Shown piece after piece: positions 288-56,642 of a stretch of DNA of 64,000 bases (the stretch's first letter is position 1; every line of letters begins with the position of its first letter). This DNA is from Eledone cirrhosa. Lineage: Eukaryota. The notes beneath the pieces were generated by a model. The model saw only the letters and a list, made by a program, of their open reading frames with translations, was not told the origin of the DNA and ran no database searches. Location of the stretch: the NCBI GenBank assembly GCA_964016885.1, contig OZ024747.1, positions 20,336,001 through 20,400,000 on the forward strand. Direction: 5' to 3'. The translations under genes and the position numbers were made by a program.

Positions 288-340
<53 letters not shown>

Positions 341-343
<3 letters not shown>

Positions 344-1090
344 GAATATATGATAGGGATAAACACTGATACAAGTATACATGTGTTTGCATTGCAAATG
401 ACCAAGTTACCTAGATTGAAAAATACTAATTAAAATAATACGGTTTGCCTGTCTCGATTTAAAATAATAAATCAATTAAAACAAACCTATATTGGCAATA
501 GCCGTGATACCTGGACAAATTTTAAATTTTAAATTTTAAATTTGTTTCGCAACAATTAAGTGAACTTTCCTATTCCTGTGCTCTTCTGCAGGTATCCACA
601 AATTGGTAAGTTTCACTTCAAAATACTTAAGAAGACTGAGAGAAATGTGTTGTTGAACGCACATGTGTCCCAGCGTCAAGCACGTCCTATACTCGTGTCA
701 CTAAAAATAGCAGCCGGTTTTATGGGAATAAAAAATGAGCTCAACGCATGGAGCCGAGAATATTATATATAGAGTTATAAACTCAAATAGTCTTTTACAA
801 TTAAATAGCTCAAAGAAAGGAATATTTCTGAGCCGTGTAATACAAATGAATATATGATAGGGATAAACACTGATAGAAGTATACATGTGTTTGCATTGCA
901 AATGACCAAGTTAGCTAGATTGAATTAATTAGTATTTTTCAATCTAGCTAACTTGGTCATTTGCAATGCAAACACATATATACTTGTATCAGTGTTTATC
1001 CCTATCATATATTCATTTGTATTACACGGCTCAGAAATATTCCTTTCTTTGAGCTATTTAACTGTAAAAGACTATTTGAGTTTACAACTC

Positions 1091-1100
<10 letters not shown>
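341..1100 (-). mobile_element. Fold-back HHR retroposon (PLE-related, family A): 504-bp terminally redundant unit plus inverted arm, flanked by (TA)n
   Basis: 341-420 is repeated at 845-924 (period 504). 761-924 is mirrored by ~938-1100. (TA)n on both sides. HHR on minus strand. Confidence 0.75.
506..596 (-). ncRNA. Type I hammerhead ribozyme, CAGAAGA core variant
   Basis: Minus strand reads GATACCTG-CAGAAGA-GCA..TGC-GAAA-CAAATTT..AAATTTG-TC-CAGGTATC: 8-bp stem I, stems II and III, GUC site. Confidence 0.8.
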
Positions 1101-1142
<42 letters not shown>

Positions 1143-1148
<6 letters not shown>

Positions 1149-2525: not shown

Positions 2526-3076
2526 GTGAATTTGGAAATAGCACGGAAAATGTATTTAAGGGTTGTTTTTCTTTTTTTATCCTTTAATTGATTCGTCAAA
2601 TTGACATTATCGAAAAGATGAGAGAGACAATTCTTTAAAAAAAAGTGTTATAATGTATATAAAGTATATAAAGTATTACCGGTTTCGATGTATTATTAAA
2701 ATTCATCTTATCAAATGTGGAGTATTAAAATAAAATATTAAAAACAATTAAAAACTAAAAATTAAAGATTTAAAATTAGAATCAAATGTTGGAGTAAGAT
2801 TTTTTCCCATCTTTCTTGCTCAAAATTTGGCTGGAGAATGAGTTCTCGTTAATAGAGAGGTGGTAGCAGCAGCTATGTTTCTTCACAGAACAAAGTTGTT
2901 TTTGCGAAGCAAAGGAAACATCCGGTAAATATGTCAGTGTATATCTGATTGCGTTAATTAACTGGTCAAGAGTTCAAAAGGATATGGAGATTTGTAAGCT
3001 AGAGTTAAACTCTATAGCAGCAGCAGGAGTGTAAGAAGAGCTCTATCATTGGAATATGGTTTTAGGGTGTGAAGTT
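2526..3076 (-). mobile_element. PLE-like 3' remnant (family C) with U3-A8 HHR-like motif at 2675-2716
   Basis: Minus strand reads TTGATAA-GATG..CATC-GAAA-CCGG-TA. Flanked by microsatellites. Same GAAACCGGTA as 43829-43838. Stem I is weak. Confidence 0.5.
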
Positions 3077-3202
3077 ATATATATATATATAAATAGTGTG
3101 AGGTTGTATATATTGTATATATATAACAATACACACATGTGTGTGTTTTTTTCCCATTGTTTTGTATAGAACCTTACTTCCCTTTATTAATATATATATA
3201 TA

Positions 3203-3300
<98 letters not shown>

Positions 3301-3307
3301 TATATAC

Positions 3308-3368
<61 letters not shown>

Positions 3369-3372
<4 letters not shown>

Positions 3373-3914
3373 GTGTCTGCCAACTCGTTTTCGAGTACGG
3401 CCACTACTTTATATCCGTGTAGGAGAACCCCTACTGATGCGCTGAACGAGTGTGAATTTTTAGTCCAGCCAGCGACTTGAAAACTCTGGTACAAACACTA
3501 CACTTGCGACAATTACTGACACATAGTGTTGGGCCCATGGTACCATGTGATGACAAGTGCAGAGAGGTCTCCAGATATAAAGCAATGTCTGTGCCGTGAA
3601 GCTTTCATGGTGAGCAAAGGCACTGCACAAAGCCAGTCCCACGCTCTTAACCAAGATGATATTTACCAAAAAGAAGAACAAGTCAACATCATTGGATACC
3701 ATCAGAGTTGCAGGTGTTATATCAGAGTTTTCCTTCTCCTAGAATTCTACCTTGACAAAGGCTAAGGGGTCATCTCTCCCGGTGATTTTGGATGGCCATT
3801 GACTCTTAAGAGCTCCTTTGCCCTTTGTTTTTAGTCCTGCAGGATGTCCAAAGTCACCCTCCTCACCAAGAAACCTTGGTGGGGTTGGCAGTTTAGTCGC
3901 CAACGACCCGACCA
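3369..3914 (-). mobile_element. Short non-autonomous RTE-derived retroposon
   Basis: Minus strand encodes the terminal zinc finger [22 protein letters not shown] then a stop, followed by an ACTCG-AAAA-CGAGT 3' stem-loop. Near-identical to 7137-7560 with the same two ends. Confidence 0.65.
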
Positions 3915-3954
3915 TGATATTTATATATATATAAAGAGAGAGAGAGAGATAAAC

Positions 3955-4038
<84 letters not shown>

Positions 4039-4045
<7 letters not shown>

Positions 4046-4256
4046 TAACAGATTAAAGTTTAAGCAAAGAATCGCTGCTTTCACCCTTTGTTAGTTCAGA
4101 AGATCCCGTTAAGGGTGAAAGCAGCGATTCTTTGCTTAAACTTTAATCTTATTTAATGTTATTTTAATAAATATTTGCTCTACGGTTCTTATATATTTGA
4201 TATATATTTTCCTTATCGAGCCCTCTTTGGATTTTAGTCTTCAATTTTATTATTAT

Positions 4257-4260
<4 letters not shown>
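4039..4260 (+). mobile_element. Fold-back HHR retroposon (family D); HHR at 4093-4142
   Basis: Inverted arm 4039-4088, then the direct part with CAGAAGA-tCCC-GTTAA-GGGt-GAAA-GCA..TGC-TT-AAACT. (TA)n flanks. Several more copies in the window. Confidence 0.8.
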
Positions 4261-4335
<75 letters not shown>

Positions 4336-5549
4336 CTGAGAGAGAGGTGGAGTGTGAGACAGAGTGATTGACAGGAAGATCGACAAACACACGTACACGC
4401 ACACATGCATTAATCTTTACGTTGACAAATATAAGTAAAATAGAAGAGTTTGTTACATGTTTCCAATACCTCGCTGCATTACTGATGGAATAAAATAGAT
4501 ATATGTGTCTCATCAAACAACCTATCTTTTGGGTACTTTCTTGTTCTTTAGAAAAGATCAGCCTTCATTAAGCAAACAATTGATTACTGCCGTGACTACA
4601 CTTGTATTTTGGGTTAAAGAGATCTGTACCATGTAAAAGCTAGAATGTAATTTGAGGTATATTTAGCTACCGTTTCTAATACGTCGATTGTCACCTTGGT
4701 AGTTCCGTCACAAAAGATAGATAAACCGTCCTTCATTATTAGTTTAATATACTGGGTAATTGCTGGCCTTGTGCCATAATAGAAACAATTATTAGTTATG
4801 TTCGTTTATGTTTTGATATGAAACAAAGTAGATGAAGATTTTACATTTAATTCTATCTAGTTCGATATACTACGTATCTGCTACTTGTGGTGTAGTTTGG
4901 CATTCGCGACTAAAATGACCGAGTGTATTCCGCAAATTATTACTCTGAGAGAAGAAAATTGTCTTTCTAGGTGCATTTCGAAATATATTAACTGCTGTGT
5001 CATCGCTATTTCGAAAATACTAGAGTCTGTAATTTTAGCAGGTCAAGCGATTTAGTATAGTTTCCACATTGATTCCAAAGCATAGCAGTCATTTACTTTG
5101 GTGTGAGTGTAATATACTGTTCCATTATGATATAAACCATTACCATCACCACAACAAAAATATGATATTATAAAAACAATAGTCTTCATCGTATAATATT
5201 CTTTTAAGTGCCATAACGTTTCATTAAACAGCAAAAAATAGCAGTTGTCATCACAGCGTCTCATTCAGCAGATATTCACGTGAAAATGACTGATTATGAA
5301 TAGTCAAAGAATCCTTAGTTATTACTACAAAGTGAATATCCATTGTGGCATGCAAACAGCTCTTCAATTCATTTGCTTCAAACGTTTCTACAGAGAAGTG
5401 TCGAGAGACATAGCGTACTTTTGGTAATGCTAAAACAACTCAAGATAATTGAAGAAGCGAAAGAAGTTACTGAGATTGGACATTACACAAGCGCTCATAC
5501 ACAGACACGCGCACATACACACCGATACACACATTCATATATACATGTG

Positions 5550-5642
<93 letters not shown>

Positions 5643-5659
5643 ATATATATATATGTATA

Positions 5660-5940
<281 letters not shown>

Positions 5941-6175
5941 TGGCGGGTAGATTTCAACCTAAAACAGGAAATGTTCTCTACCTTCCTTTCTCTTACTGCA
6001 GGTTCGAGTATCAAGAAATAGCGTTGACCATTTCACTAATTTAAAACGATAATCTCATCAGATGTTTTCTTTGAAAGTGCAAAATAGCATTCACCTGTTA
6101 CTAAACTGAATAAATCATTATTGATCCAGCATGGTGTAGAAAGTTACACGCATGAGTAGATTATATATACTAGCA

Positions 6176-6735
6176 AATAATAATAATAATGAAATTATTG
6201 TGTACAGTGCTCAGGTGCACTACAACTCCTCAAAGGTGCATGTATAGTACATAGAACAATGTAAAAATGTCAGGAAAATGAACAGTGAACAAGTCATGAA
6301 ATACATGTGTGCGTGTGTATGGAGGGGGGATATCAGGTATAGTGTTGGTGAATCTCAGGAAGCATGGATGTTTTAAAGGATGCAGTGTCTCGACAGCTAA
6401 CAACTGATGCAGGTAGTTTGTCCCATATTTCAGCAACTATGAGCGTGAAAACATGTTTCCGAAAGTCATAGGAACTGTGCTGTTTTCTGACATTGTGGGC
6501 ATGCCCACGTGTATTAGACACATGGAAATCAAAAAGGTACTCAGAGTTGTTGTTGGCAAGATGGTTAATAATTTTGTGGGTGTTTACCAAGTCAGTTGCC
6601 AGACGTCGGAGCTTCAATGTAGCCATGCCCAGAGAAGCAAGGCGTAATAGAGTTAGCAGTTTCAAAGGATGATATAGGGGTGAGTATTTCATCCACATGT
6701 CTACTGACAAAGGCATGTGTTAAGCACCTGGCGTT
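6176..6735 (-). mobile_element. CR1-clade LINE, 5'-truncated 3' end
   Basis: LRRLATDL..TRGH..FRKHVF..WDKLP C-terminal motifs and (ATT)n tail. Same family as 62846-64000. Confidence 0.85.
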
Positions 6736-7136
6736 CTAGTTGGTGCAGAAAGGTAATGGACATCATGATTATAACATTAACCCTCATCCCCACCATGAGC
6801 ATCATCAGCAGCACTGTCATAACGACCACTACCATCATCACAACCACATGTGTCATCATCATCATAATCCCTAACATAGACAAAGACACAGAAGTTCAAT
6901 ATTTTTGACCAGTACTTGTTTTATCAAGCATACATTAACCAAAGTATGTTCATGCCATGGACATGTTAAAATAGCTCCTACATACATGCATGACACATAT
7001 ATACATACATACATAGTACATACATACATTCATTCATACAAATATACATTCATACAAACGTACATACATACAAACATACATGCATACACATATATATATA
7101 TATATACATGCATACATGCGTACATAAATAATTATA

Positions 7137-7560
7137 TGGTGTCTGCCAACTCGTTTTCAAGTACGGCCACTACTTTATATCCATGTAGGAGAACCCCTAC
7201 CGATGCGCTGAATGAGTGTGACTTTTTAGTCCAGCCAACGACTTGAAAACTCTGGTACAAATGCTACACTTGTGACAATTATTGACACATAGTGCTGGGC
7301 CCATGGAACCATGTGACGACAAGTGCAGAGAGATCTCCAGATATAAAGCAATGCCTGTGCCGTGAAGCTTTTATAGTGAGCAAAGGCACTGCACAAAGCC
7401 AGTCCCACTCTCTTAACCAAGATGATATTTACCAAAAAGAAGAACAAGTGAATATCATTGGATACCATCAGGGTTGCAGGTGTTATATCAGAGTTTGTCC
7501 AAAGTCAGGATGTCCAAAGTCACCCTCCTCACCAAGTTTAGTCGCCAACGACCCGACCAT
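7137..7560 (-). mobile_element. Second copy of the short RTE-derived retroposon, with internal deletion
   Basis: High identity to 3369-3914. Lacks ~3730-3840 and has a short TGTCCAAAGTCA duplication at the junction. Confidence 0.65.
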
Positions 7561-7994
7561 GAGACAGGTTGTACTGTGATACATGTTACCAGTAGCACCA
7601 TACATAATTACATACATAGATACATACATACATACATGCGTACAAACATACATAAATACATACATACGTACATATATAATTACATAGATACAAACATACA
7701 TACATACTCACATACGTACATACATATAGAGAGATAGAGAGATAAACATATTATTAATGACCCACAGGATCTGATGTCATCCGATGTTTCCTCAACAAGA
7801 TATCATATACTGTATTTACACTATAGTAGATGATTTAAGGGTTTTCTCTTATTTTCTCGCTCCCTTTGCTAATACCTAATATGTAATGGCCAGATACTCT
7901 ATCTGCATTATAACTATCAAACCATCTGTTTCCACTTTGATGCCTGCTTTAATTAATCACCGAACGGTCTCTTGTATTTATCACTAGTATTGGT

Positions 7995-8221
7995 CTGCAT
8001 TGTTAATGTTATCATCAATATCATTATACTCATTCTCGTTATCTATGCCATTATCACCATGACCATCATCATCATCATCATCATCACCATGACCATCATC
8101 ATCATCATCATCATCATCATCATTTTCATCGTCATCATTATCGTCATCCTCATCATCATCATCATCATCACCACCGTCATCACCACCATCATCATAATCA
8201 TCATTATCGCCATCGTCATCG

Positions 8222-8254
<33 letters not shown>

Positions 8255-8286
8255 CCGCCATCGTCAACATTATCATCGTCATCTTC

Positions 8287-8318
<32 letters not shown>

Positions 8319-8359
8319 CATCATCATTATTATTAATGTTTCTTCTTCTTCTTCTTCTT

Positions 8360-8390
<31 letters not shown>

Positions 8391-8475
8391 TTATTATTAT
8401 TATTATTATTCTTCTTCTCAATGTCATTATTATTATTGTTATTATTATTATTGTTGTTGCTGTTGTTGTTGTTAT
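7995..8475. repeat. Compound trinucleotide repeats (ATC)n/(TTC)n/(TAT)n/(TGT)n
   Basis: Direct inspection; the source of the poly-I/D/M ORFs. Confidence 0.95.
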
Positions 8476-9460
8476 GCCGTTGTTTTACTATCTTTATACA
8501 TATTGTAGATCTTAACTACAGGAAGGAAATTGAATATAAAATGTCTGTCCTTCATCTCTTAAAATATCGATGGAAGCGATCAACAACATTAACATCGTCA
8601 TCATAATCTCAAGTATCTTCATCGTGTTCATGATCATCACCAATACCCCCTACTATCATTATTAACACAACAACCATCACCACCATGATTACCATCATTA
8701 AAATCGTGATCACCTTCTATGGAGTCACATTGGTCTTTGCCGTCATTCTTGTTTTTATAATTGTTGTTTATGTTTGAGCAGCAAACATAAATCACAATCA
8801 ATGTTTGATCATCATCATCGCCGTTATCACCAATATGCACATTATCATCGTTACCATCACAATCACCAACATGACCACTACCAGTTCCATCATCATCAAT
8901 ATGCATATTATCAACGTCACCTTCTCCACCAGCAACGTAACCACTACCGGTACCGTCATGTACTTCATCATCAACTTCATCCTCGTTTTTGCCATCATTG
9001 TCAAAATTGTTTTGTTTATGTTGTTGTTAGCAGGGAAATCTGGGAAGGTTTAAAAAGAGACTGCTGAGTATGATTAACAAAAACCGTGGATACATTTAGC
9101 ATAATATTCTACATTATCTGTACACTGATTAAATAATACCTGGTGTTCAATTAAAGAAGCTTTTGAAGGATATCAACGTAATACAGTGATTTAATTGTGA
9201 ACAGGCTTTGCAGTTTAACTTATATGCAATGAATATTAGAAACACATATACTGTTTAGCAAATATATACCGCTGTTAAATACATTTTGACTGTGTATGTG
9301 CAAAATCAAAATGAGGCGGATTCAGCCGCTTCACACAAAACAAAATTACAAACAATACAATTAAAAATTGTATCATTCAGTTCAAGATTAATAGTGTAAT
9401 GCATGCCAAAAAGTTGATGCTTAAGCAGTAAGCAAAATAGTGCTTTAAAAGCCTACGCAT

Positions 9461-9612
9461 TCGGACGCCATGCTTTCCAGCAAAGTTTCGTACCTTTACG
9501 GTCTGAGTTCAAATCCCGTCGAAGTTAACTTTGCCTTTCATCCTTACGGGATAAAATAAAGTAATGTACTGGGATAATTGCTGGCCTTGTGCCAAAAGTA
9601 GAAACAATTATT
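9461..9612 (+). mobile_element. Nin/Deu-domain tRNA-SINE (5'-eroded)
   Basis: GAGTTCAAATCC B-box, then GCCTTTCATCCTTACGGG..GCTGGCCTTGTGCCAAAAGTAGAAACAATTATT. Confidence 0.8.
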
Positions 9613-9809
9613 ACAATTAGATAAAGCAGTATGAAAAATAATGAACAGAAGACGAGAAGTTACACTGATAAACGAAATAACATGGATGTTGCATTAGCAA
9701 TATTAGTTTGACTCGAATTAATTCGGATGAGATATTTATTTTCAAGGTAGGAAATTACAGTTGAGTTTGAAAACCTGTTGCACAAGAAATAATTCCAATG
9801 TTCCAAAGG

Positions 9810-9968
9810 ATATGAGTCATGATATACACGTGTGCGTGTGTATGGAGGGGGGATATCAGGTGTAGTGTTTGTGAATTTCAGGAAGCATGGATGTTTTAAA
9901 GAATGCAGTGCCTCGGTAACTAACAACTGATGCAGGTCGTTTGTTCCATGCTTCAGCAACTCTGAGCA
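9810..9968 (-). mobile_element. CR1 fragment between ~70-bp direct repeats
   Basis: Matches 6293-6445. 9731-9800 is repeated at 10045-10114. Confidence 0.8.
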
Positions 9969-10625
9969 GGTGTAATGTCTTAATATATTTTGGCTTTCAA
10001 TTCATTTCACTGCATCATTGCAAAAAGAGTATTTCGTTCTTTGGGATATTTATTTTCAAGGTAGGAAATTACAGTTGAGTTTGAAAACCTGTTGCACAAG
10101 ACATAATTCCAATGCACTACCAGACACTTAAATTGCAACATCATTTCTTGAAACAAGAATTTTGAAGAACTTTCGCCACAACAGCTTCACCATGTTATAT
10201 AACTATGTATGATATATAGTAAGGCAAACAGCTATTTCAAAATAAAATTATGATAAATAAATAATACATTTTTAAAATGGTAACTGTATGAATGCATCTT
10301 TTAAACCTAAGGCTTCAAAAAAGTGCACCTGATGCCGTTTCAAGTTATTTAACGTAGTCTGTTTTAATGCACTATGTAAATTAATCTAGTTTCTGAAAGG
10401 TATAAAAAGAAGATAAAAAAGAACATATAAATACAAAATCATATAATTTTAATAATAAGAAAGAATAGAGTTGGAATTTTCAGATTTCATTTTTTGCAAG
10501 ATAAGAAAGAACTATACATTTTTTGTTAAAGTAATATTTTATATTCAACTGCAAATTTTAGTTTTGTTAAAACTTTTTTCCTCATCTATAAAGTTCCAGG
10601 ACATAGAAAAGAGTCTCTAACTTTT

Positions 10626-10714
<89 letters not shown>

Positions 10715-10804
10715 GTATATACAGAAACACACAAAGCATGGAGACACAAACACACGTACGCACAGATATATATATGTATGTATAAGTATATAGGTATATA
10801 TTTG

Positions 10805-10846
<42 letters not shown>

Positions 10847-10874
10847 CATATAAAAAATATATATATATACATAG

Positions 10875-10920
<46 letters not shown>

Positions 10921-11020
10921 CTATGTATATATATATTTTTTTCTATGTATGTATGTATATATATATATATATATATACACATACAAATATATACCTATAT
11001 ACTTATACATACATATATAT

Positions 11021-11085
<65 letters not shown>

Positions 11086-11145
11086 TGTAAACATCCCGAC
11101 CACCGTGCCGAGCGGTTTCGGCTTGTGTGTTCATCAAGTCTTTTT

Positions 11146-11230
<85 letters not shown>

Positions 11231-11231
<1 letters not shown>

Positions 11232-12139
11232 GAGGTGTGTCAGAAAAGTTCCAGGACTGATGTCACAATAGATTTATTTCAATTCCAAACTTCACAATAA
11301 GAGTTTTCTCCTTCAAAGTAATCCCCCTGGAGTATGTAACTGTAATCTTAGCTCTCTGCAGCGACCAAACCTTTTTCTTCATAATTGTATATACATGTCC
11401 TCTGTTTCAGGTCGTCAAGCAATGAGCACAGAGCAACGAACAAACTCGAAGTTTCTGGTACGGTTTGGGAAAACTCCGTCAGAAGCACTGGGATTGCTGC
11501 AGCAAGTGTATGGAGATGAGACGATGTCACGCTCACGTGTTTTTTTAGTGGTGCAAGAGGTTTAAAGAAGGACGCGAGGAAGTGGAAGATGACCCCCCAG
11601 GAGCCGAAGGGCCTCAACAATCAGAACTGATGTCAATGTTGAGCGCGTCAGGCAGATGGTGCGTAGGGATCGTCGGCTGAATGTTCGAATGAGCTGGACA
11701 TGAATCGGGACAGCGTCTGGAAGATTCTCACTGAAGATTTGGACATGCGGAAAGTCTGCGCGAAGATGGTGCCAAAACTGCCGAACGATGACCAGAAGGG
11801 TTGACGCATGCAAGTGTGCCAGGACATCCTCGAGCGTCTTGAAATCGAACCAGACTTGCTAGGGACAGTCATCAACGGTGATGAGTCATGGATCTTCGAG
11901 TAAGACCCGGAGGGAACCCGTTTTGAAGACGTGGACGACATCAAAAAGGCCGTGACGATGGAACTGCGGAGGATCCCGGAATAATCCTTCCAGGAGTGCG
12001 TGCAAGCGTAGCAGAAAAGGATGGAAAAGTGCATTAGACTCCAGGGGATTACTTTGAAAGAGAAAACCCTTAGTGTGAAGTTTGGGTTTGAAATAAATCT
12101 TTTGTGACATCAGTCCTGGAACTTTTCTGACCCACCTCG
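11231..12139 (+). mobile_element. Mariner DNA transposon, internally deleted
   Basis: Inverted ends CGAGGTG(T/G)GTCAGAAAAGTTCCAGGACTG... with TA flanks and a transposase relic inside. Confidence 0.92.
11422..12073 (+). pseudogene. Mariner transposase relic
   Basis: MSTEQRTNSKF..VYGDETMSRSRVF..RFKEGREEVEDDP..RKVCAKMVPK..GDESWIF, then a jump to GTRFEDVDDIK..KCIRLQGDYFE. Contains stops and frameshifts; most of the catalytic domain is missing. Confidence 0.9.
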
Positions 12140-12146
12140 TATATAT

Positions 12147-12936
12147 AATAAATGTAATCTGGGTTTTTCGAATATTAATAATAACATTCGACTCATTTGC
12201 AATTATGCAAACAAACCTCAATTGTATAGCCATGTCAGTAGAATGACCTTTCATTCTTGCTCTTGTGTTGGCATGGGAACAGAACTGCAGACACTAATAT
12301 TTCTTTGTATCAACCTTCATCAATACAGCTCAGTGTTCACTTGCCAAACTGTGAGAGCTAATGAAAATATATGCTATTTTCAAAAATACACAGTGACTGA
12401 TCGACCTGATTTGCATATTAGCAGACTGGCCAGTCAGTTTCCAGTACACGAGCGATAAATGGCCGGCTTTGCCAAATTCAAATAAAAAGAACATTTTCGC
12501 TCTACATGGCTGAATACAATAAATGTAATCTGAGTTTTTCGAATATTAATAATAACATTCGGATTCGTTTGCAATTATGCAAACAAGCCTCAATTTTATA
12601 GCCATGTCAGTAAAATGAACTCTTCATTCTTGCTCTTGTGTTGGCATGTGAACATAACTGTGTATTTTGAAATTAGCATATATTTACACAAGCTCTGGCA
12701 GTTTGGCAGGTGAACAGTGAGCTGTACTAATGAAGGGTGATACCCAGAAACATTACTGTCTGCAGTTCTGTTCACATGCCAACACAAGAGCAAGAATGAA
12801 GGGTTCATTCTCCTGACATGGCTATAAAATTGAGGCGTGTTTGCATAATTGCAAACGAATCGAATGTTATTATACATATTAGAAAAACTCAGATCACTTT
12901 TATTGTATTCAGCCATGTAGAGCAAAAACTTTCTTT
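12147..12936 (-). mobile_element. Fold-back HHR retroposon (family F): 371-bp terminally redundant unit plus inverted arm
   Basis: 12147-12287 is repeated at 12518-12660 (period 371). ~12657-12936 is an inverted copy. HHR copies at ~12270-12340 (-) and 12710-12775 (+). Confidence 0.8.
12710..12775 (+). ncRNA. Type I hammerhead ribozyme (point-mutated core)
   Basis: GTGAACAG-tg-AGCTGTA-CTAATGA-aGGG-TGATA-CCCa-GAAA-CATTACTG-TC-TGCAGTT-CTGTTCAC. The sister copy has TTGATGA, so the consensus is CTGATGA. Bulged stem I. Confidence 0.75.
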
Positions 12937-13903
12937 ATATATATATAGAGAGAGAGAGAGAGCTTTCTAATTCAGCGAATACCAAACAGTGCTCGTGGTA
13001 TATTTCTCAGGTACTCTGTGGGTGCAAGTTGTAACCCAGGGCTGTTGTTTTCTTCTAAGCATTGATTCTACAACTCCTGTATGAATATTGTAGACGCTCT
13101 TTCAAACAGACTCTACCTTATGAGTTTAAAAATAAAGAAACCTGAAGTGCGTTCAAACCCGAAAACCGGTTCTAGCAACTCTCCTACACACATTTGAGAG
13201 AGAGAACTGGGAACAGATGACAACTAAATATGAAAACTAAATATGACAACAATTCACCTTTCCTTAAACTCTTTTCACCAGAAATCTTCTGCAGACCAGT
13301 TTTACTTTACAGTGACCAAACAGAGCGTATTTAAATTTAAAATATCCACTGAATTACAATCACACCTTTACCCCTATGCATTTTAGAAAGGTATAAATTG
13401 TAGCGACTATCTATAATATACATAATCTTTTAGACTGTGAGATTAAACATTATTGTTGCACACAAGGATTGTGTTTTGTATTCATTTTAGTCACATATTT
13501 TCGTTAAACTTTCCCAAGACCTTTTATATTTATATATTCTAAATAAAGCCTTCCCACATGAATGAAAAGTTTTGAGGCAATCAAATCAGTAAAATGAAAC
13601 CTATTTCTTCTCTTCATAAATATTTAACTCAATTCTATAGCATTTTCTGATCTCCTTTTATATTAATAAATGTTGATAACACAGCCGCCCAAGTGGTAGA
13701 TCCAAGAGGAAATGGAAATATGAGAAATATGAATACTTATTAAACGACAATCACCAAGTTCAATAATGCAATTGAAATATAATAGTAAGAGAGTTATTAC
13801 AGATATTACAGAGGAATACAAATCTATCATAAACAAAGGTAGTATGCGCCCTATAATTGATGTTTAATAGTTTAAATAGTAAATAAAATGTGATTAAAAC
13901 ATT

Positions 13904-14937
13904 CTAGCATTCTTTTAGTCTAGCATTCATTTAGTCTAGCATTCATTTAGTCTAGCATTATTTTGTCTAGCATTCATTTAGTCTAGCATTCATTTAGTCT
14001 AGAATTCATTTAGTCTAGCATTCATTTGGCCTAGCATTCTTTTAGTCTAGCATTCATTTAGCCTAGCATTCATTTAGTCTAGCATTATTTTAGTTTAGTA
14101 TTCATTTAGTCTAGCATTCTTTTGTTCTAGCATTCTGTTAGTCTAGCATTCTTTTGGTCTATCATTCATTTAGTCTAGCATTCTTTTGGTCTAGCATTAA
14201 GTTAGTCTAGCATTCTTTTAATCTAGCATTCTTTTTGTTTAGCATTATTTTAGTTTAGCATTCATTTAGTCCAGTATTCTTTTAGTCTCGCATTCATTTG
14301 GTCTAGGATTCTTTTAGTCTAGCATTCATTTAATCTATCATTCATTTAGTCTAGCATTCATTTAGTCTAGAATTGTTTTAGTCTACCATTCAGTTTGTCT
14401 AGCATTCTTTTAGTTTAGCATTCATTGAGTTTAGCATTCTTTTGTTGTAGCATTCTTTTAGTATAGCATTCTTTTGGTCTAGCATTCTTTTGGTCTAGCA
14501 TTCATTTAATCTGGCATTCTTTTGGTCTAACATTATTTCAGTCTAGCATTCTTTTAGTCTAGCATTCTTTTAGTCTAGCATTTTTTTAGTTTAGCATCTA
14601 TTTAGTCTAGCATTCTTTTAGTTTAGCATTCATTTAGTCCAGCTTTCTTTTAGTCTAGCATTCATTTGGTCTAGCATTCTTTTAGTCTACCATTCATTTT
14701 GTCTAGCATTCATTTAGTTTACCATTCAGTTAGTCTACCATTCAGTTAGTCTAGCATTTTTTAGTCTAGCATTCTTTTAGTTTAGAATTCATTTAGTCTA
14801 GCATTCTTTTGGTCTAGCATTCTTTTAGTCTAGCATTCTTTTAGTCTAGCAATCTTTTAGTCCAACATTCATTTAGGCTAGCATTGTTTTAGTCTAGCAT
14901 TCTTTTCCTCTAGCATTCTTTTTGTCTAGCATTATTT
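13904..14937. repeat. 16-bp tandem satellite, ~64 copies, consensus GTCTAGCATTC(A/T)TTTA
   Basis: Direct inspection. Confidence 0.95.
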
Positions 14938-14947
14938 TAACCACTAG

Positions 14948-15106
14948 TATATCAATGGATTAATAAACGCTTCATTGACTTGTGATACTGGGATCCCAGC
15001 TTTAGGTAACATGTATATGCCTAAGAACTCTAGGATTATAGGCTTGAGCCCTAACATTGTGACATTCGTCAAACAAATGCAAATAAAAAAATTTACAAAT
15101 ATAAGC
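14948..15106 (+). other. Candidate coding exon (unidentified gene or pseudogene)
   Basis: AG|...|GTAAGT boundaries and a 159-nt open phase-0 frame: YINGLINASLTCDTGIPALGNMYMPKNSRIIGLSPNIVTFVKQMQIKKFTNIS. Confidence 0.35.
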
Positions 15107-15467
15107 GTAAGTATATGTACACATATATTCTAAGGAATGACAGATAGCTATAAAGAAGTGTCTGACAATGCGTATAGCGAATAAAACAGATAAAAACATT
15201 TTTGCGTTTGCATAAATCTGAACATCAGATGTTTATATAAAATCCAACAAATGTCAAAAATAAGATCGTCATATGAAGCAGCGCTTTAAATAAAATATGC
15301 CAAGTCTTCCAAATTATAGTGTCTTTATTCCAAGTCATAAAAGATAATGAAGCAAAGTATTATATTAGAAAGAAAACAGCTATTTCACTTCTCAATGAAA
15401 TATTGATAAAAATTGTGACAGATTTGATGACAAGTTTTCCTAAATAAAAATGATATGTTCAATTTAG

Positions 15468-15602
15468 AATCACGAAACAAAATGTTGATATCAATGTTTT
15501 TGGTAGGCTGTTGGAATCGATATTATATCAGAGTTCTTCTGTCATATATGGCAATGACGGGAAGCAAGAAAATGAATTTGCGGAAGCCATAGGTGCCTTC
15601 AA
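15468..15602 (+). other. Candidate coding exon
   Basis: tttag|...|gtaaat boundaries and a 135-nt open frame: ITKQNVDINVFGRLLESILYQSSSVIYGNDGKQENEFAEAIGAF. Confidence 0.3.
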
Positions 15603-16806
15603 GTAAATAAATCGTCTAGAAATGAATTATATATATGCGGTTTAATAGAATAAATGATAGTGTAAAAGAAAAGCAGATTGTATGGAGAAATTAGTTTATT
15701 GTCATCTATATCTGGTATAAAAGAGAAAACCTTTATTTACAGGAACATTCAGTTATTTAATGAGACAGAGTGATGTTTCCTTCTATGCCAGCTTCCAAAC
15801 CTACCATTCGCATTCACAATATCTTAAACAATATGACGCATCATAAACAAACAAGTGAAATTTCATTCTATGCAATCCTCTGTTAGAACTAGTAAGATTG
15901 AATTCATAACGTAATAACAATGCTATATGACCAAAAAGAAATACATCTAGTGTAATATATTTTTGATTTTGTTGTTATAGGTTTTAGCCCCTATTAATAT
16001 AATCTATGATCTGATTAATACCAGCGAAGTGTATGTACAATATGTTGATCCTAGTGAAATGTATACACAAAATCTTTTATGTATAATATACATATATGCA
16101 GGTTTCACTAGCTGTTGCAGGATAACAGCTTAAAAGATACATAGTGAGACATATATATGATTTTTATGCATAAACATACATATGCCTACTTCTGCAGCCC
16201 TCTCTTATGAATCACGTTATGTTGAAGCTACTGCTAATATGACCATATGTTTTCCAACTAATTTTTTTTTTTTAAAGATAGGTTGTAGTTTGTAGGCGAT
16301 TAGCTTTGAGTTTCTAGCAGGCTAAGTAACATCTTAGTACATCTGTCTTTCACATGTATTACCCTTGACATCAAGAAAACCTTTGTTAGCAAATGCTCAA
16401 CTGTGAATTCAATCGCCAAGAGGAAATGTGAGCCAGTGAACGTAAATAGAGGTTTGATAGAATTAATCTCTTCTGCAGAAAATATACATGTACTGCCATC
16501 TCAATACACGCAACCAGATAAAATGGACTACATAGATACTGAGCTTCTATCCTGCTGTACAAATATTACTGACATGGCAAAAATCTTGACCTTACTCTTT
16601 AGAGTCAAGAGGCTTTCTAAAGGAAAATCTTGTATTCTTATTAATTCAATATGAATGAAGCATGATATACACCGGTGCCATATGCATCCGGGCCTGGGTG
16701 ACTGTTTAATACACAACATATATATATAATTTATGATAAACACAAACATCTGAGTGACCATACACCCGTCGCAAGCAGCGATTCTTTGCTTAAACTTTAA
16801 TCTGTC

Positions 16807-16909
<103 letters not shown>

Positions 16910-18789
16910 TATATATATATATATATACATTGCGAAGAGTGTATGGTGACTCAGATATTTGTTTTTATCTCAAATATATATTGATACAAATGTGATAAAA
17001 TGTAATAATATTATATTTTACAAACATCAACTCTGCTATGTTTTCCATTAATAAACTCTAAATGTGGTCACGATTCATGTCCGTATTATTTAAATAACTA
17101 ATTAGTTATCATATTCAAAGACTCTCATCGCAGACAGATGACTAGAAATCCGTGGAAAGATCACAGAATAGTGACAAAGCACTTTGATATGAATAGCAAA
17201 ATAATCAATTCATTAAATATTTAATTGATTAATTATTTTAATTAATAAAGAGTAGTCGGAAATGAATATAACCGTTCGTGATGCGTATGGCAGAGATTAT
17301 GTTTCAAAATTATGATTCCAAGTAGGGGATTTATCATCAATGCGAAATGCTTGATATATAAATATTGAATTTAGTGTTGAAATAATTGTTATGGCGCACA
17401 ATATTCTAAAGTTTTGAATGAAAGACCTTATTTTAATAACTAAAATTATATTAGTCATTTCAGCATGTGAGTAATGTCAGCCGAGCATGTTTCAGTATTA
17501 AACTTGCCGAACTAGTGATGAGGTTTTAAGTGTAATAAAATTCATGCGTATAATTATCATATTTACAAAATATAAAACTAAGGTCGAATGCTTAAAAATG
17601 CATTGCTCCTCATAAGAAAATCGTTAAGTTATTATACCATAATCAACATAGAAATAATTACGCTGCAACCAAGGAGCAATCCAGTGGCTTATAGAAGAGA
17701 GAATTATTTACACCATGTAGCGGAATAACACTTTTTATAGATTCATTCAACAAAGAATTATTAACACAGTAAATCAGGCATGGGCACCATTTTTGAGTAG
17801 TGAGCCACATAGAATGTAGCTCAAAATAAGATGAGCCACACTACTAAATATTTCAATTTTGAAATTAGGTGTGCCATTCAGATAAAACCAAACGGCCACA
17901 GTTTGTCCTTGACAGAACAAAACTAGTACAAGGGTTATTGGTATAAGGCTATATGATAAATAGTTTATCACAAAATTATCGAAATGCTGAATCATTACGA
18001 TGCCAATCTAAATGAGGATTGTTATCCATGAGGGAATATAATAAACACGTTGTACTATAACAAACACTGCTGAAGTGAACCTATCTAGTATATGTTTATT
18101 CAACAGAGAAGCCGCGAAGAAAACCGAAGTGTAAGGATAAAACAATAAAACAAAATGTAATGAAATATATGGCTTAACAAACCATATATGTGGCTGTAGT
18201 AATAGAAACGAATCCCCAAGTTAGATGCTCATTAGTGGCAGAATATCAAGGGAATCTTATTGGTTTTCTGAAAAGAATGGTTTTCATTTAATGAGATGTT
18301 GGTCAATTTAAAACAAACTGAAGCAATAAATTAGACTCTTTCCTCGGGATACTACTTTAACTAGCACATATCTTCTTTAATGTAATCCCTTGTATATAAA
18401 GCTTCATTCTACAGGAATCTTTATATCCGTATGAAAAATGTTTCAACATCACATTAGTTCTGTTCATTTTCATGAAAACCATAACAACATCAACGACAAA
18501 AGCCACCAACAACTTATATGTAGCCACCACCACCTCAAAACGCGGCATAATAACGGCACAAATAACGGCACAAATAACGGCATAATGAATTTCCAGAAAG
18601 TGGAGCTTGTGCCCAGTATCTCGACCAATGAGAAATAGTCACCAAATCTCCTTCCAGTCATATCCAATCATATAAATATAAAATATATATTGGATTATGT
18701 AGTCCTAAGTACATTGAGTTGTCTAGAAAAAGGCGAGTTGTTTATACATAGAACCGTCGTTTGTCATTTCCACACTTGTATAACATAAT

Positions 18790-18979
18790 TTTTTCTACTT
18801 CTGTTTGGCACAAGGCCAGCAATTACCCAGTACATTACTGGTACTTTATTTTATCGACCCCGTAAGGATGAAAGGCAAAGTTAACCTCGGCGGGATTTGA
18901 ACTCAGAATGGCAAGGGCCGTAACTCTATGCGTCAAAGCATGGCGTCCGACCCTCTACCGATACTGCCAATCCACCGCC
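18790..18979 (-). mobile_element. Full-length Nin/Deu-domain tRNA-SINE with TSD
   Basis: Reverse complement of the 27805 family. TSD CACTT(G/A)TATAACATAAT at 18773-18789 and 18979-18995. Confidence 0.9.
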
Positions 18980-21373
18980 ACTTATATAACATAATGCAAT
19001 GATTATCATAATTTAGTCCCCTATATCATCATAACCATTAGTAATACATAATCATTAGTAATGCATATCTCCACTTAGACACTAAACCTTCAGTTGTTCA
19101 CCCAACAGAAATTCCACTAATTGAAATTAAAGTGTAAGCACCTGGATATCTCGTAGACTTCCTGCACTTTAAAATCATGGTTGCATTAACCATTAATGAA
19201 AATAAGCATATGCTTAGTGTATTTAGTGAAGAGTGGCACTATTTTATCTAAATTGCATATATTTGTCATTAAGAAAAAAAAAAAGATTTTTGCAGGCTTT
19301 ATTGCCGTAGGGTTTTACGTCCTCAATATTACTTAATCCAGGTCTGGGTTACATGGATATTCTATTTGTTAAAGCTGTCCTGTACTCTCTCGTGTATTTT
19401 CTATATACTGACACTTGAGCTGATATGGTCATTAAGCAAAGTAAGCACCTGCTTAGGATAGCTAGAGAAGAGGGACACCATTTTATTAAAATGAAATTTA
19501 TTTGTCATCCCACTTTTTGTTTAACACTTTAATCTTTTAAGTGCTTAAGAGCACACAAAAAATTAACATATTATTCGAGGGGGCGGGGAATAGTTGACAT
19601 TCAGGTATAATCCAAACGATTATTTTTTTTACTACATTTTCCTTCTACTCAAATGCATTCACACGTTTGGGTCCCCACTCAGCTATAATATAATATTTGC
19701 CTAACATGATATACAATAATATCAAACACAAAACCTCATAATTCTGAAGCGAACTTGTTACCCATTCACTTCTGCGTTCCCTTACGTCATGGTATTACCT
19801 GCACCATCTCTATTGTAATTATTCTAAGAGCGGACCTTTATGAATGAGGATAGGCAGAGAAGTTAGAGCGTCAAGCAAAAATGATTTTGCATGATATAGT
19901 TAGGACCCGTTACCTTGTAAGTTCATATTCCGCCAAGGTCAGCTATTTCCAAGGTCAATAAAACAGTAATATTTATATTCTTTGTAATCGACTTCCTCGC
20001 CCCACATGATAATTTCATATTTTACAAAACTTCACGCCATCCAACTTAAACATTCTTACTCTTCTCAATAAATGCTAAACTTACACATTTTAAAATATAT
20101 CGATATATATTAGATAACGCTAGTATATGACTAATAGTTTACCCTTTAAAACTGATAAATGTTCTGGTATAGCCATGTTATCTAAAATCGAAATGTATGT
20201 CTATTCCAATTAAATTCTTCCGATAAATCTGTCATTTAATCTTAAATCTTCAATATATTTCCTTGGGGTCTTAGAGGCTTTGTCTGCACTTTCTAACTGA
20301 AAAAATATTAAATTGAATTTTATCATTTTTCTTTAATTATTGTAATATTAGCTGAAGTTCATTTAAAAGAAAAATACAAAAACGTTGAGTACTCATGTAA
20401 TCTTTTTATTTTTTTTATTTTTAATACATATTCAGTAATAGAAAATGGTGGTGGAATGGCAGAGTTGGTAAAGTGTCAGATAAAATACAATTGTAATATT
20501 TATTCTGTCTGTTTACACACTGAGTTAAATCCAACCATGTTCGACTTTGCATATCAACCTTCCGGGATCGTGAGAATATAATCCCAGTCAATAAATGTTG
20601 TTGGTTCAATCACCTTCTTACTACCCTTCAAATGCCTTTGGCTGATTTAATAAACACCTTCGTCCTGTCCTCCAATATGTCTGGCCTTGTGCCTAAATTA
20701 GAAATCAATAATTATTTAGTGAGAGAAAGAGATGGAATCAATCCCCATGATAATTTTAGGAATAGAAACTTTTGTAATATTCTAAGATTTGCAAAGCAAG
20801 TGAATTATGTTATTTTTTAAAAACAGATTTTGTTAGTAGTTTCTAATTTCATAGTCTTATCTTTGATGGCTATTTAAGTATATAGTTAATAGCTATAGCC
20901 AAGCCACGTGGATTTCATAATCTTACATCTTCCCTTTAGCTGTAACAACTGTTTAGTCTAGACGTTATTTCCCTATACAATGAAATACATTAAAGTTTTT
21001 TTTAGTAGTTATTAATCATCATTAAGACTAGTTTACTGAAGTGTTATAACTGTGTTAATTAGCTAATATTTTTAATCGTGGTAAAAACGCGCTTTGAACA
21101 TTTAAGCAGGTAAAAATGTATATTTTCCTTAAATATAAATTTTGCTTGCTCTTAATTGTAATATACATAAGTATTGCACCTGAATAAAACATTGAATGAA
21201 AAATGCTCTACCAAATACGAATTTTAGCATGTATAAACTATATTTGAGCTGATTTAAGGTATAGTATGATTTAAATATGTTTTATTTCAAACCATTTTCA
21301 TACCCAACCAACACACGTATAATGGATAATTCAGCAGATAGTTACGAATAGATAAACTCCACACCATCTGATG

Positions 21374-21430
<57 letters not shown>

Positions 21431-21703
21431 CTCTCGTCCATGAATTCACCAAGCTTAAGCTTATAGATATCATGTACTTGTCTCTTCCTATCTTTCCGTT
21501 GCAATACCATCTTTGTTTGTTTACATGTCTCGCTCGCTTCCCGCTATTTTACTTGTCCCAATAACTTTATTTAGTTGCACCAACCAGAGGTATATGATTT
21601 TTAAAGCGATGAAATACCAATGAAGGTTGGAAGATCACTGATGAAGGACTAACTTTATTCATATGTAACCCATGTGCAACCACACAGCACTCCATTTTTC
21701 TTA

Positions 21704-21755
<52 letters not shown>

Positions 21756-21803
21756 ATCGTTATCTGGATGCACTCTTTAGATTTTGGTCTTCATATTTAT
21801 TAT

Positions 21804-21843
<40 letters not shown>

Positions 21844-21864
21844 GCACACACACAGAAACACACA

Positions 21865-22314
<450 letters not shown>

Positions 22315-36268: not shown

Positions 36269-39200
36269 TGTTTCTTTTATTTGCCACAAGGGCATCAAAA
36301 GTGGGACAAGTACAATGGGGGGAGTTTACAAAACAAGGCGTCCTCAATAGGGAGGAGGCAATAACAATATATAAAAATAAAATAAAATATAACAATAAAT
36401 AGAATTATAACAAAATCCTCAATAGAGGATTTTGTTATAAAATATAACAAAAAATAAAATTTATAACAAAATCCTCAATAGAGAGGAGGCGCCTTGGGGG
36501 GTCGCACACACCCCCGAAAAAAGTGTGCAACCCTTTTCCTCAGGAGCACAGAGAGGGGGTGCTCCCTTGTTCCTTCCTCTTTTCCACCTACAGGCTCATG
36601 TAAAGAGAAGGCCCATTCACACGGGCCATTCTCGCCACTTTCACCCACCTTTCATAAAAACGACTGGGGTGCAGCACCTCTCTCTCCATCCTGATCCTTC
36701 TTCCGAAATGATATCGGAAGAAACGGACCAGTTGTTGGCCAGAGAGAAAGGTGCCTGACCTCAGTCCTTTCAGACGCGTCCACCATACAACCTCTTTCGC
36801 CATGGCTATTACGCACAGAAACACCGCCTCTGCTTCATCTTTGAAGGTGGGAGGCGGCTTGATCATTACAATAGACTCGGTGGCCAACCGGATCGGTCCC
36901 ACCCTTGACAGCAGTTGTTCGACATAGCCCCACAGATCGGCTACGCCCGAGCAGTGTACCAATGCGTGTGTAACGGTTTCCTCGTCGCACACGCATCTGG
37001 GACAGATCTTTTTGGCGGGGTCTCTACCCGGGCGCCCGTGTCTGTAGAGCCTTTCTCGAACGGGTAAAGCTCCTCGGTAGCACTGCCAGGCCAGGGACTT
37101 CTGGAAGTTGTCCATAGGTCCCGGGCTGAATGTCCTACCGAACAGGCTGGCCAGTTCGTCCTCCTCCATGTCTAGGGCTTCTCCGAGGGCGTCGTCGCAC
37201 CTGCTGCGTACCAGCCCTCTATAGAATGTTGCGGTGGAGTCTCCACTGATAACCGGATCCGCCTGCCAGAGGGCGGTGAGCGCCTGGGCACACTCAGTGT
37301 GCCAGGCGCCCAGTTTTCTCGGTCTTTGCTTGACCCAGGATTGCAGCTCGGTGAGTGAGACGAGTCTGGGAAAGGTTCGTCTCACAAACGAGGCCCACAC
37401 CGGTTGTCCGGTGAGGAATACGTAGAGGTGCCGTAGCCTTAATGCGTGTTTACGCATCATTAGCCACGGCATCCCCAGCCCTCCTTTCGAAGGGTGTTGA
37501 CAGCAGATGGATCTCCTCACCATAGGAGCCCGCCTCTTCCAAAGGAATTGGAAGAGCGCGCGCTCCATCTTTGTGAGGGTTTCCCTTGGGCAGGGCACTG
37601 CGGTCAGGCGGTAGTAGATGACGGACGCTATATAAGTGTTCGCCACCTCCGCCCGACCTTTCAGGGATAGTTTGCAACTGGCCCACTTCTGTGTCAGTGC
37701 AAACACCCTGTTCGTAACCTCCGCCCAGTTTTTCTCCACCTGGAGGTCCGGTCCGAACCAGACCCCGAGCAACTTCACCGAGCCCTCCGTCCAGCGTCCG
37801 ACGACGCCATCGGAGGGCATCGGTCTGCCCCTCCACGTGCCGAGTTGCAAACCGATCGACTTGTCCCGGTTCAGCTTAGCCCCTGTGAACTTTTCGTACT
37901 CCTCCAGTAAGGTGCCGACCGCCTCGATCCCGGAGGCCGTCGACACCATTACTGTCACGTCATCGGCGTAGGCCGACACCGCTTTCCGCAATCCCGGTTC
38001 CAAAGGGATGCCCTGCAACAACTCCAACTTCCGCAGTAGTGGCTCGAGAGTCAACACATACAGAAGGGAGGAGAGAGGGCACCCTTGTCGGATGGACCGA
38101 GAGGTAGCCGTTCACCTTGACCCTAGAGCAGATGCGGCTGCTATGCATAGCAGTGATCCAGCCCCTGAAAACGGGTCCGAAGCCTGCCGCCGCTAGCACC
38201 GCATCCAGGTAACCATGGTCGACCCTATCGAACGCCTTAGATTGATCCAAGTTGATCAGAGCCCCACCAAAGCCGGGTTCGTTCCCAACCCTCTCTATGA
38301 TGTATCGCATGAGGTGGAGGTTGTCATGGATGGACCTGGACGGGATAGCGCATGTCTGCGCATCTCCCACCAGGTTGCCCACGACAAGCGCCAACCTCTT
38401 TGCTAGCACCTTGGCCAAAATCTGTAACTCTGTATTTAGCAGAGTTATGAGCCTGAAGTTACTTATTTCGTCCCCCTTGTTCTCGTCCTTCCTCACTAGC
38501 GTGACTACGCCCTTGGTCACAGCACAGGGAATTCTCCCGTTCTGTTGCCAGTTGCAGTAGACCGCCTCGAGGAAATCGGGGAACAAGTCCGGCATAGCTA
38601 GATATAATTCGTAAGGAAGACCATCGAGACCGGGGATTTGCGTTTGCCGCATTGGCTCAGCACGTCCTCTATCTCAGCGGCCGAAATCGGCTCCTCGCAG
38701 GACTTCGCCTCCCTGTCCGAGAGGCGCGGCAGGCCGTCGAGGTATGGACCGAAGTCCACGTTCCCAACCGGCTCCCCGCCCCTCCCGAACAGTCAGGAAA
38801 AGTGCCTTTGAAAGGCCTCACACATCTGCTTAGGCTCAAGAATCGCCCGTCCATCCAGGTCTCGCAAAGACCGGATGGTGGATTTAGTTCCACTGTTGGC
38901 CTCTGTCACGCGGGCCCAGCTAACAGCTTTGGTTCCCTCGTTCCCTAGAGCACGTATTTTACTTCGGACAACGCAGCCTTCGTGCTTCGCGTCGAAAAAC
39001 TGGCTCAAAGCCGTTCTCGACGCTAGCACTCTGGCCACGTCGCCGCTTCTAATTGCCTCTTCTACTCTATCTATTAGCTCCCTTTCCTTCCTATTCCTAT
39101 CCGCAGCTAGAACCTTACTAAATTCTATCGAGACTACTCTAATCTCTCTCTTTAGAGATACCCACCACCTGCTGTTGACGATCGCTCCAGTCAACCGTTC

Positions 39201-42379: not shown

Positions 42380-42521
42380 AAAAAGTATGTCTCTGACGGC
42401 AGAGCTCAAGCCGTTTCGACGTCGGAGTCATACTTTTTCCTATTTCCCACTCTACTACCCTAAGTATTGAGTACTCTGATGCGTTATGGTACATATGGTT
42501 CGTTACCACAATTCCTTCGTT
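42375..42521 (+). mobile_element. Fold-back retroposon (family E), short
   Basis: Inverted arm 42375-42420 is joined to the direct part at GTCGGAGTC. Shared tail CCCACTCTACTACCCTAAGTATTGAGTACT..CCTTCGT. Confidence 0.75.
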
Positions 42522-42540
42522 ATATATAAAAGATTATATA

Positions 42541-42791
42541 TATGAAGATTATATAGGACAAACTAAACTCACACTCAGAAATAGAATGACAGTTCATCGC
42601 CAACAATTACGAGATCCAACCACGAGACAGATACCACTAAGCGCACATCTAGACATTTGCGCAAGTAATAAGACACTCAAATTCCAAGTCTTCCCATTTT
42701 ACCTTTGCGCTGACAATACAACAGAACAAATACGAATAAATAAGGAAATATGTTTATTCAAAAATATAGACCAGCATTAAATATGGTTTAA
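42541..42791 (+). pseudogene. C-terminal GIY-YIG endonuclease of a Penelope-like retroelement
   Basis: YEDYIGQTKLTLRNRMTVHRQQLRD..LSAHLDIC..FQVFPFY..IRINKE, a 1-nt frameshift, then MFIQKYRPALNMV*: the YIG, R..H, E..FI....P.LN motifs. Confidence 0.88.
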
Positions 42792-45555: not shown

Positions 45556-45637
<82 letters not shown>

Positions 45638-45640
<3 letters not shown>

Positions 45641-56623: not shown

Positions 56624-56642
56624 ATATATATATATATATATA

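Follow-up and report, generated by a model that had tools for sequence, protein, structure and literature searches.

We consider it likely that the locus at positions 341-1102 of the 64-kb window (the whole stretch of DNA analysed here) is a single insertion of a 504-bp element, non-coding and present in many copies, that carries a predicted type I hammerhead and was probably copied into a (TA)n tract by the reverse transcriptase (RT)-endonuclease of an autonomous Penelope-like element (PLE). By analogy with published systems, a Penelope-like partner would have mobilised the element, which is best read as a member of a non-autonomous Penelope-like or non-LTR-retrozyme-type family. Hammerhead-bearing non-autonomous partners of PLEs are described in many animals, and both this kind of element and its insertion geometry are already in print; the 504-bp family itself may be undescribed. 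The locus would provide a clean record of priming from two ends and of copying past the ribozyme cut site, and it bears on whether PLE templates are circles or uncut multimers. Moreover, if the A4 core of the predicted ribozyme (see below) is family-wide and active, it represents a natural core variant missed by CUGANGA-based searches, and ribozyme counts in such genomes would therefore be too low.

Architecture of the locus

The element occupies 762 bp between two (TA)n tracts (291-340 and 1103-1144), so that microsatellite sequence lies on both sides of it, and the window as a whole is AT-rich, crowded with microsatellites and similar in appearance to animal genomic DNA, with some resemblance to that of octopus. 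The features of the locus are as follows.

291..340, no strand: (TA)n microsatellite, left flank, likely insertion target (TRF 291-351, period 2; sequence)
341..844, minus: full 504-bp unit, circularly permuted, 32.5% GC, no ORF longer than 61 aa (repeat and ORF analysis)
506..596, minus: type I hammerhead-like motif (descriptor scan, shuffles, lowest-energy fold of 596-506, TRF 517-543)
738..755, minus: predicted small hairpin with a GGCUC/GAGCU stem, RNA-3' of the start of the inverted arm at about 760-763 (fold prediction)
805..834, minus: predicted hairpin with the same GGCUC/GAGCU base, RNA-3' of the start of the direct arm at about 840-845, equivalent to 336-341 (fold prediction)
845..924, minus: terminal redundancy of 80 bp in which the unit begins a second turn; it stops 93 nt ahead of the next predicted cut (repeat comparison)
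925..1102, plus: inverted 5'-truncated copy that abuts the direct copy at the latter's 5' end and stops 80 nt ahead of the predicted cut (repeat comparison)
1103..1144, no strand: (TA)n microsatellite, right flank (TRF 1091-1144)

Positions 341-924 comprise 1.16 turns of the 504-bp unit. The direct redundancy, a partial-tandem (pseudo-LTR) structure, pairs 336-420 with 840-924 at a period of 504 (96% over 85 nt); within it, the 80-bp repeat reported by the first-pass annotation was recovered at 341-420 and 845-924, with differences at 2 of 80 positions. The palindrome which that annotation had placed at 761-1100 is also real, with arms at 760-924 and 938-1102 (98% over 165 nt; 4 of 165 positions differ), and its inverted arm starts at 925. 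This inverted copy (925-1102, 178 nt) is the reverse complement of the unit from 433 to 341 and then from 844 to 760, has 4 differences in 178 from the direct sequence, and adjoins the 5' end of the minus-strand copy. Read from the sequence, the head-to-head junction at 924/925 has no microhomology. Both arms had been said to stop about 80-90 nt before the next cut site, and by simple arithmetic they fall short of it by 93 and 80 nt. The locus ends at 341 and at 1102, the latter equivalent to unit position 760; these two positions do not coincide within the unit and are not inverted termini.

Eighty bases are thus present three times, with one private change in each copy of 341-420, which fits a single event followed by about 1% drift in each copy. 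These changes also bear on the idea that the palindrome or the redundancy is an artefact of assembly or amplification, which we regard as extremely improbable. Palindromes and repeats between microsatellites are hard to assemble, and the junction 924/925 lies outside the stretch compared with reads (341-844); but the two arms and the two direct copies differ from each other as counted above, each with private changes, and two other families in the window have the same layout.

Coding capacity and the predicted hammerhead

The longest ATG frame in the 504-bp unit encodes 61 aa (886-704). It had no Pfam match and no longer homologue in a search of longer proteins only, and its candidacy as the N-terminus of a PLE was rejected on the same grounds. 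The statement that the unit lacks coding capacity therefore holds, and a non-coding unit of low GC content (32.5%) and a few hundred bases (504 bp) is what is expected of a retrozyme.

A descriptor scan of both strands over the 64 kb, which tolerated up to one mismatch in the core and required a stem sum of 13 or more, gave four matches, one in the 504-bp unit and three in another TA-flanked family. The match in the unit (596 to 506, minus strand) combines a stem I of 8 bp, a stem II of 3 bp and a stem III of 8 bp with GAAA and a GUC triplet. Its stem sum is 19, while among dinucleotide shuffles of the unit 1 in 1000 reach 13 and none in 1000 reach 15. Stem II extends to 6 bp with a bulge in the lowest-energy fold, the loop of stem III holds a 7-nt repeat (TRF 517-543), and cleavage is predicted after C514, between 514 and 513. 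The core reads CAGAAGA and not CUGANGA, A replacing U4 at window position 587. The hammerhead is the lowest-energy fold for both 596-506 (-18.2 kcal/mol) and 602-500 (-20.8 kcal/mol); when longer flanks are included, an alternative fold is slightly more stable than the hammerhead (-28.6 versus -27.9 kcal/mol; z = -1.29, 28 of 200 shuffles equally stable), and in the lowest-energy fold of a closed 504-nt circle stem I is missing (z = -1.8, 2 of 40 shuffles).

No Rfam hammerhead family matched at the locus. This blank is weak evidence, because the gathering scan also missed three motifs with a canonical core at 45.7-45.9 and 56.5 kb. Other Rfam output at the locus consists of snoR64 and bxd_3 matches far below their cut-offs, and miRNA-like matches at 865-1001 were rejected as mere reflections of the palindrome. 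Taken together, a type I hammerhead is predicted in the unit, with a fold and stems beyond chance, a core that departs from the consensus at A4 and no match in Rfam. The earlier claim of one hammerhead per unit accordingly survives as one predicted minus-strand motif (596-506), qualified by its core and by the silence of Rfam. Judged from this ribozyme, the RNA sense of the unit would be the minus strand. On the plus strand opposite the motif, 571-612 could be read as a 14-nt exon bounded by a splice acceptor and a donor, a likeness that is probably fortuitous.

The locus has a single hammerhead, because the repeated part does not reach the motif. Two consecutive units, each with a complete hammerhead, are hence not present (1.16 units, one hammerhead), and we therefore do not file the locus as an active retrozyme.

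As regards the core, changes in it usually reduce hammerhead activity strongly (PMC3088659, section 8), and the same review gives natural core variants such as U4C in a viroid, U3-A8, C6 and others. The term 'U4A' has no occurrence in its main text, while its Figure S7 lists inactive variants and may bear on U4A. Among the papers listed in a literature search, none was plainly about a natural U4A hammerhead.

Copies of the unit in public sequence runs

Words of the unit were found in five of the eight public runs listed (three studies), none of them recorded as RNA. Four of the eight were aligned to 341-844, with 517-545 masked by the tool. In run X1 the unit is covered by 1,663 contigs, of which 301 are at least 99% identical to it, 508 at 95-99%, 588 at 90-95% and 266 below 90%; run X6 contributed 2,348 RAD reads, and runs X4 and X5, both from other organisms, 13 and 2 contigs, respectively. 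The 1,663 contigs and 2,348 reads of mixed identity indicate a dispersed multi-copy family. A single-copy unit is thus contradicted by X1, and the proposal of an independent non-autonomous family is supported by copies that are both numerous and divergent.

Contigs of X1 overlap across the unit (461-589, over the cut site; 570-725; 617-784; 631-842), the joint from 842 to 344 has the same depth in this run as the 631-842 contig, and one X5 contig, from another organism, covers 636-781. Among the contigs listed, none spans the whole unit, so that neither a further complete 504-bp copy nor an array was observed directly. The central segment is nevertheless a feature of the family and not a junction private to the locus, because divergent overlapping contigs cross it. 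The joint of 844 to 341 was rejected as evidence of circles, since it comes from where the unit was opened for mapping.

Coverage of the unit is uneven. Summed contig depth in X1, which is not a copy number, is about 3,000-22,000 over 545-765 and about 18,000-165,000 over 766-844 and 341-510, rising some 4- to 10-fold across 765-800; the contrast in X6 is 3- to 5-fold. This hints that short copies running from about 770 toward the cut site outnumber full turns. Moreover, five contigs leave the unit before 772 and enter TA repeats, and the depth step at 765-800 together with these exits fits what a common start point would give. Piles of read ends at 428-431, 601-604 and 799 in X6 were rejected as element ends because they coincide with AATT cut sites of the library.

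The same unevenness might be expected if the locus derived from an autonomous PLE by 5' truncation or local deletion, in which case the high-copy part from about 770 to 500 would be the pseudo-LTR of that PLE and the 504-bp circle would never have been amplified alone. We find this explanation unlikely. It is favoured by the roughly 3- to 10-fold greater depth of 770-844 and 341-500 over 545-760, by the lack of a whole-unit contig among the contigs listed and by remnants of a different PLE family in the window (42397-42780 holds a GIY-YIG-like frame that, with E = 0.007, falls short of the Pfam cut-off). However, the period is 504 bp with no ORF between the repeats, the middle segment is crossed unbroken by divergent X1 contigs and by one from another organism, and, as a weaker point, no longer homologue was found for the 61-aa frame that covers the start sites. 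The ORF-free 504-bp period and the contiguity of the middle in other copies also do not fit a mere pseudo-LTR of a single full-length element, which the first-pass annotation had named as a competing possibility.

Among the contigs listed, strand-switch joints occur at 371/498, 485/834 and 503/844; they point to fold-backs at other loci. Their variability matters for a further explanation, namely that the hammerhead is a chance fold in a unit that is either a satellite monomer or a repeat of DNA type (MITE, fold-back or Helitron-like). A long palindrome, TA flanks, an imperfect core and the missing Rfam match would all agree with this, but the ends at 341 and 1102 are different points of the unit and do not form terminal inverted repeats, terminal redundancy and variable fold-back joints are not features of MITEs, and 0 of 1000 shuffles give such a fold. 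An origin of this type is hence very unlikely, and a PLE-mobilised non-coding element remains the preferred reading.

The best 40 of the 143 variant rows contain near-fixed differences from the window at 410, 477, 565, 599, 678 and 728, and no variant at 587, where A4 lies. From this absent row, and not from a count, we deduce that most copies of the 504-bp family probably do not have U4, A4 being probably common among them, because a majority U4 would rank among the best-supported variant rows. Pattern scans gave no match in viral contigs and none in metagenome contigs; the core pattern had a single match (L001), which spans 21 nt in a bacterial-type contig of 61% GC that is otherwise dissimilar, and which was discounted as fortuitous.

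Proposed origin of the insertion

Each step of the following scenario is modelled on published PLE and retrozyme reports. A master locus with at least two tandem units would be transcribed in the minus-strand sense, giving a transcript that is either an uncut multimer or a self-cleaved 504-nt monomer, possibly closing to a circle. The PLE protein would then cut both strands of AT-rich DNA and prime from both ends at two internal RNA sites (about 760 and about 845), so that both arms would be first-strand cDNAs that start at a TA flank and run toward the RNA 5' end. One cDNA of 584 nt would have passed through the ribozyme cut site without a scar and continued 80 nt into a second turn, the other would have reached 178 nt, and joining of their truncated ends head to head would have produced the palindrome, after which the three copies would have drifted by about 1% each. 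Clean passage of the 584-nt cDNA across the cut site would need a template that is either circular or an uncut multimer, or else a precise jump between templates. With its single hammerhead, the locus would not itself release a cut-to-cut monomer and is thus likely a dead-end daughter copy. An autonomous element with the termini of the 504-bp unit was not found in the 64-kb window.

The putative start points lie close to predicted structures in the RNA. Each arm starts 4-10 nt 5' of a predicted GGCUC/GAGCU hairpin, and the two starts are 80-85 nt apart. The motif AGCCG occurs four times, which exceeds chance only modestly after correction for its post-hoc choice: a GC-rich 5-mer of some kind appears three times in 187 of 5000 shuffles. 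The left end could alternatively have lost 760-840 by a deletion into the TA tract, which would look like the offset of 80-85 nt between the start points; the tail of PLEs measures 30-40 nt.

Insertions of PLEs share much with this arrangement. Partial tandems, an inverted 5'-truncated copy at the 5' end, a (TA)n bias and non-autonomous families are reported in PMC8557442, and the insertions treated there (Poseidon, Neptune, Hydra, Naiad; Chlamys MRC1; Craig et al. 2021) have in common with the locus the pseudo-LTR partial tandem, the inverted 5'-truncated copy, a (TA)n target without a readable target-site duplication and a hammerhead in the repeat. The locus differs from them in its 504-bp unit without an RT-GIY-YIG ORF and in its end offset of 80-85 nt as compared with the tail of 30-40 nt. 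Among the papers listed in a literature search for hammerheads and Penelope in octopus or cephalopods, which covered few subscription papers, PMC8557442 alone had those taxa. For the anole PLE, assays in vitro are reported to show that both strands are cut and extended, that targets are AT-rich, that there are two internal start sites and that insertion is indifferent to ribozyme mutation (PMC11167929). An internal RT start downstream of the hammerhead, two start sites and two-strand priming, deduced here for the locus, have been demonstrated for this element (PAc, Poseidon of Anolis carolinensis; Frangieh et al. 2024, PMC11167929). In contrast to PAc, the putative starts at the locus lie about 173 and about 258 nt past the cut beside a GGCUC/GAGCU hairpin, and the unit is non-coding.

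Hammerheads in PLE repeats, with opposite-strand pairs 100-700 bp apart and a model involving circles, are described in PMC4209133. The fungal and protist PLE hammerheads with a large helix III reported there (Cervera and de la Pena 2014) resemble the one at the locus, which is of type I with a long stem III and could work as a monomer; unlike them, the latter has an animal-type genome context and an A4 core and is known from a predicted fold. Stem III is 1-2 bp in most animal hammerheads, whereas it is long here and the core has A4. Retrozymes and their circles have been described (PMC7229834), and it has been put forward that retrozymes, which include monomer copies and have units of 51-972 bp, derive from PLE pseudo-LTRs (bioRxiv 10.64898/2026.07.22.740005). 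Metazoan non-LTR retrozymes (Cervera and de la Pena 2020, PMC7229834; Li, Clavereau and Pollet 2026, bioRxiv 10.64898/2026.07.22.740005) are like the locus in their non-coding, low-GC unit with one type I hammerhead and like the 504-bp family in their many dispersed copies and proposed mobilisation by PLEs. The length of 504 bp falls inside the range of 51-972 bp (Li et al.) and above that of 150-450 bp (Cervera and de la Pena 2020, PMC7229834), and with 1.16 units and one hammerhead the locus differs from retrozymes that are called 'active' on the basis of two units. The word 'inverted' is absent from the main text of PMC7229834.

Within the preferred reading, the template could have been an uncut multimeric transcript, the A4 ribozyme being weak or dead and no circle being formed, a version that we take seriously without favouring it. 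The A4 core would suit such a template, ribozyme mutants of the anole PLE are reported to have left insertion unchanged with unprocessed RNA as the dominant template (PMC11167929), and just 1 of 9 Xenopus retrozyme dimers was reported to be cleaved in vitro (bioRxiv 10.64898/2026.07.22.740005). On the other hand, depth drops toward the predicted cut and stays lower beyond it, which fits many template 5' ends near the cut, although the mask at 517-545 blurs this pattern, and the strand-switch joints listed on the cut-site side end at or before 503. In addition, the three changes listed at 546-600 spare the stems and core of the motif (565 and 566 are in the apical loop of stem II, and 599 is outside the motif). 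It is a rather doubtful but conceivable extension that A at U4 is the family norm, that most templates nonetheless owe their 5' end to the hammerhead, possibly assisted by the PLE protein, and that the GGCUC/GAGCU hairpin marks the RT starts, which would amount to a readable recognition signal for a Penelope-type RT and an unusually long tail of 80-85 nt.

Other elements of the window

The first-pass annotation had assigned the same architecture to 12147-12936. This holds for the repeats, with a redundancy of about 143 nt at a period of about 371 and an inverted arm at 12143-12940, and fails for the ribozyme: no hammerhead at 12143-12940 passed the descriptor scans or folding, and a CACAAGA...GAAA stretch in a similar context passed no descriptor. 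The element is older, because its copies are only about 87-92% alike. In line with the earlier claim of unrelated sequence, it shows no significant likeness to the 504-bp unit: 14 of 200 and 85 of 500 shuffles reached an equally high score.

A third family (45630-45968 and 56454-56625) possesses a canonical CUGAUGA type I hammerhead with a palindromic, short stem III. At 45.6-46.0 kb it forms a perfect fold-back with one hammerhead per arm, and at 56.5 kb a solo copy; both end at TA repeats. All three copies cross the cut site, because it lies only about 45 nt from the TA-side end.

Several further elements were observed. Related fragments at 5790-5940, 22000-22170 and 42380-42800 lie beside microsatellites, and each begins with a folded-back hairpin containing one half of a hammerhead (GAAA, stem III, UC). 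The fragment at 42380-42800 continues into the GIY-YIG-like frame mentioned above. All three are probably what is left of an autonomous PLE family to which the 504-bp unit is not related. A GC-rich LINE occupies 36588-40028 on the minus strand; frameshifts interrupt its endonuclease, RT and zf-RVT frames. A minus-strand stretch between microsatellites at 11080-11150 (UUGAUGA...GAAA-hairpin-UC) has no good stem I and is possibly a decayed hammerhead. Inverted repeats of 121 nt (11213-11333 and 12038-12156) flank a decayed transposase-like stretch, presumably Mariner-like, and the right end abuts the 12143 element. Adjoining the locus, 1140-1575 is a MITE-like element whose terminal inverted repeats measure 94 nt (98%) and whose interior contains a tandem duplication of 31 nt.
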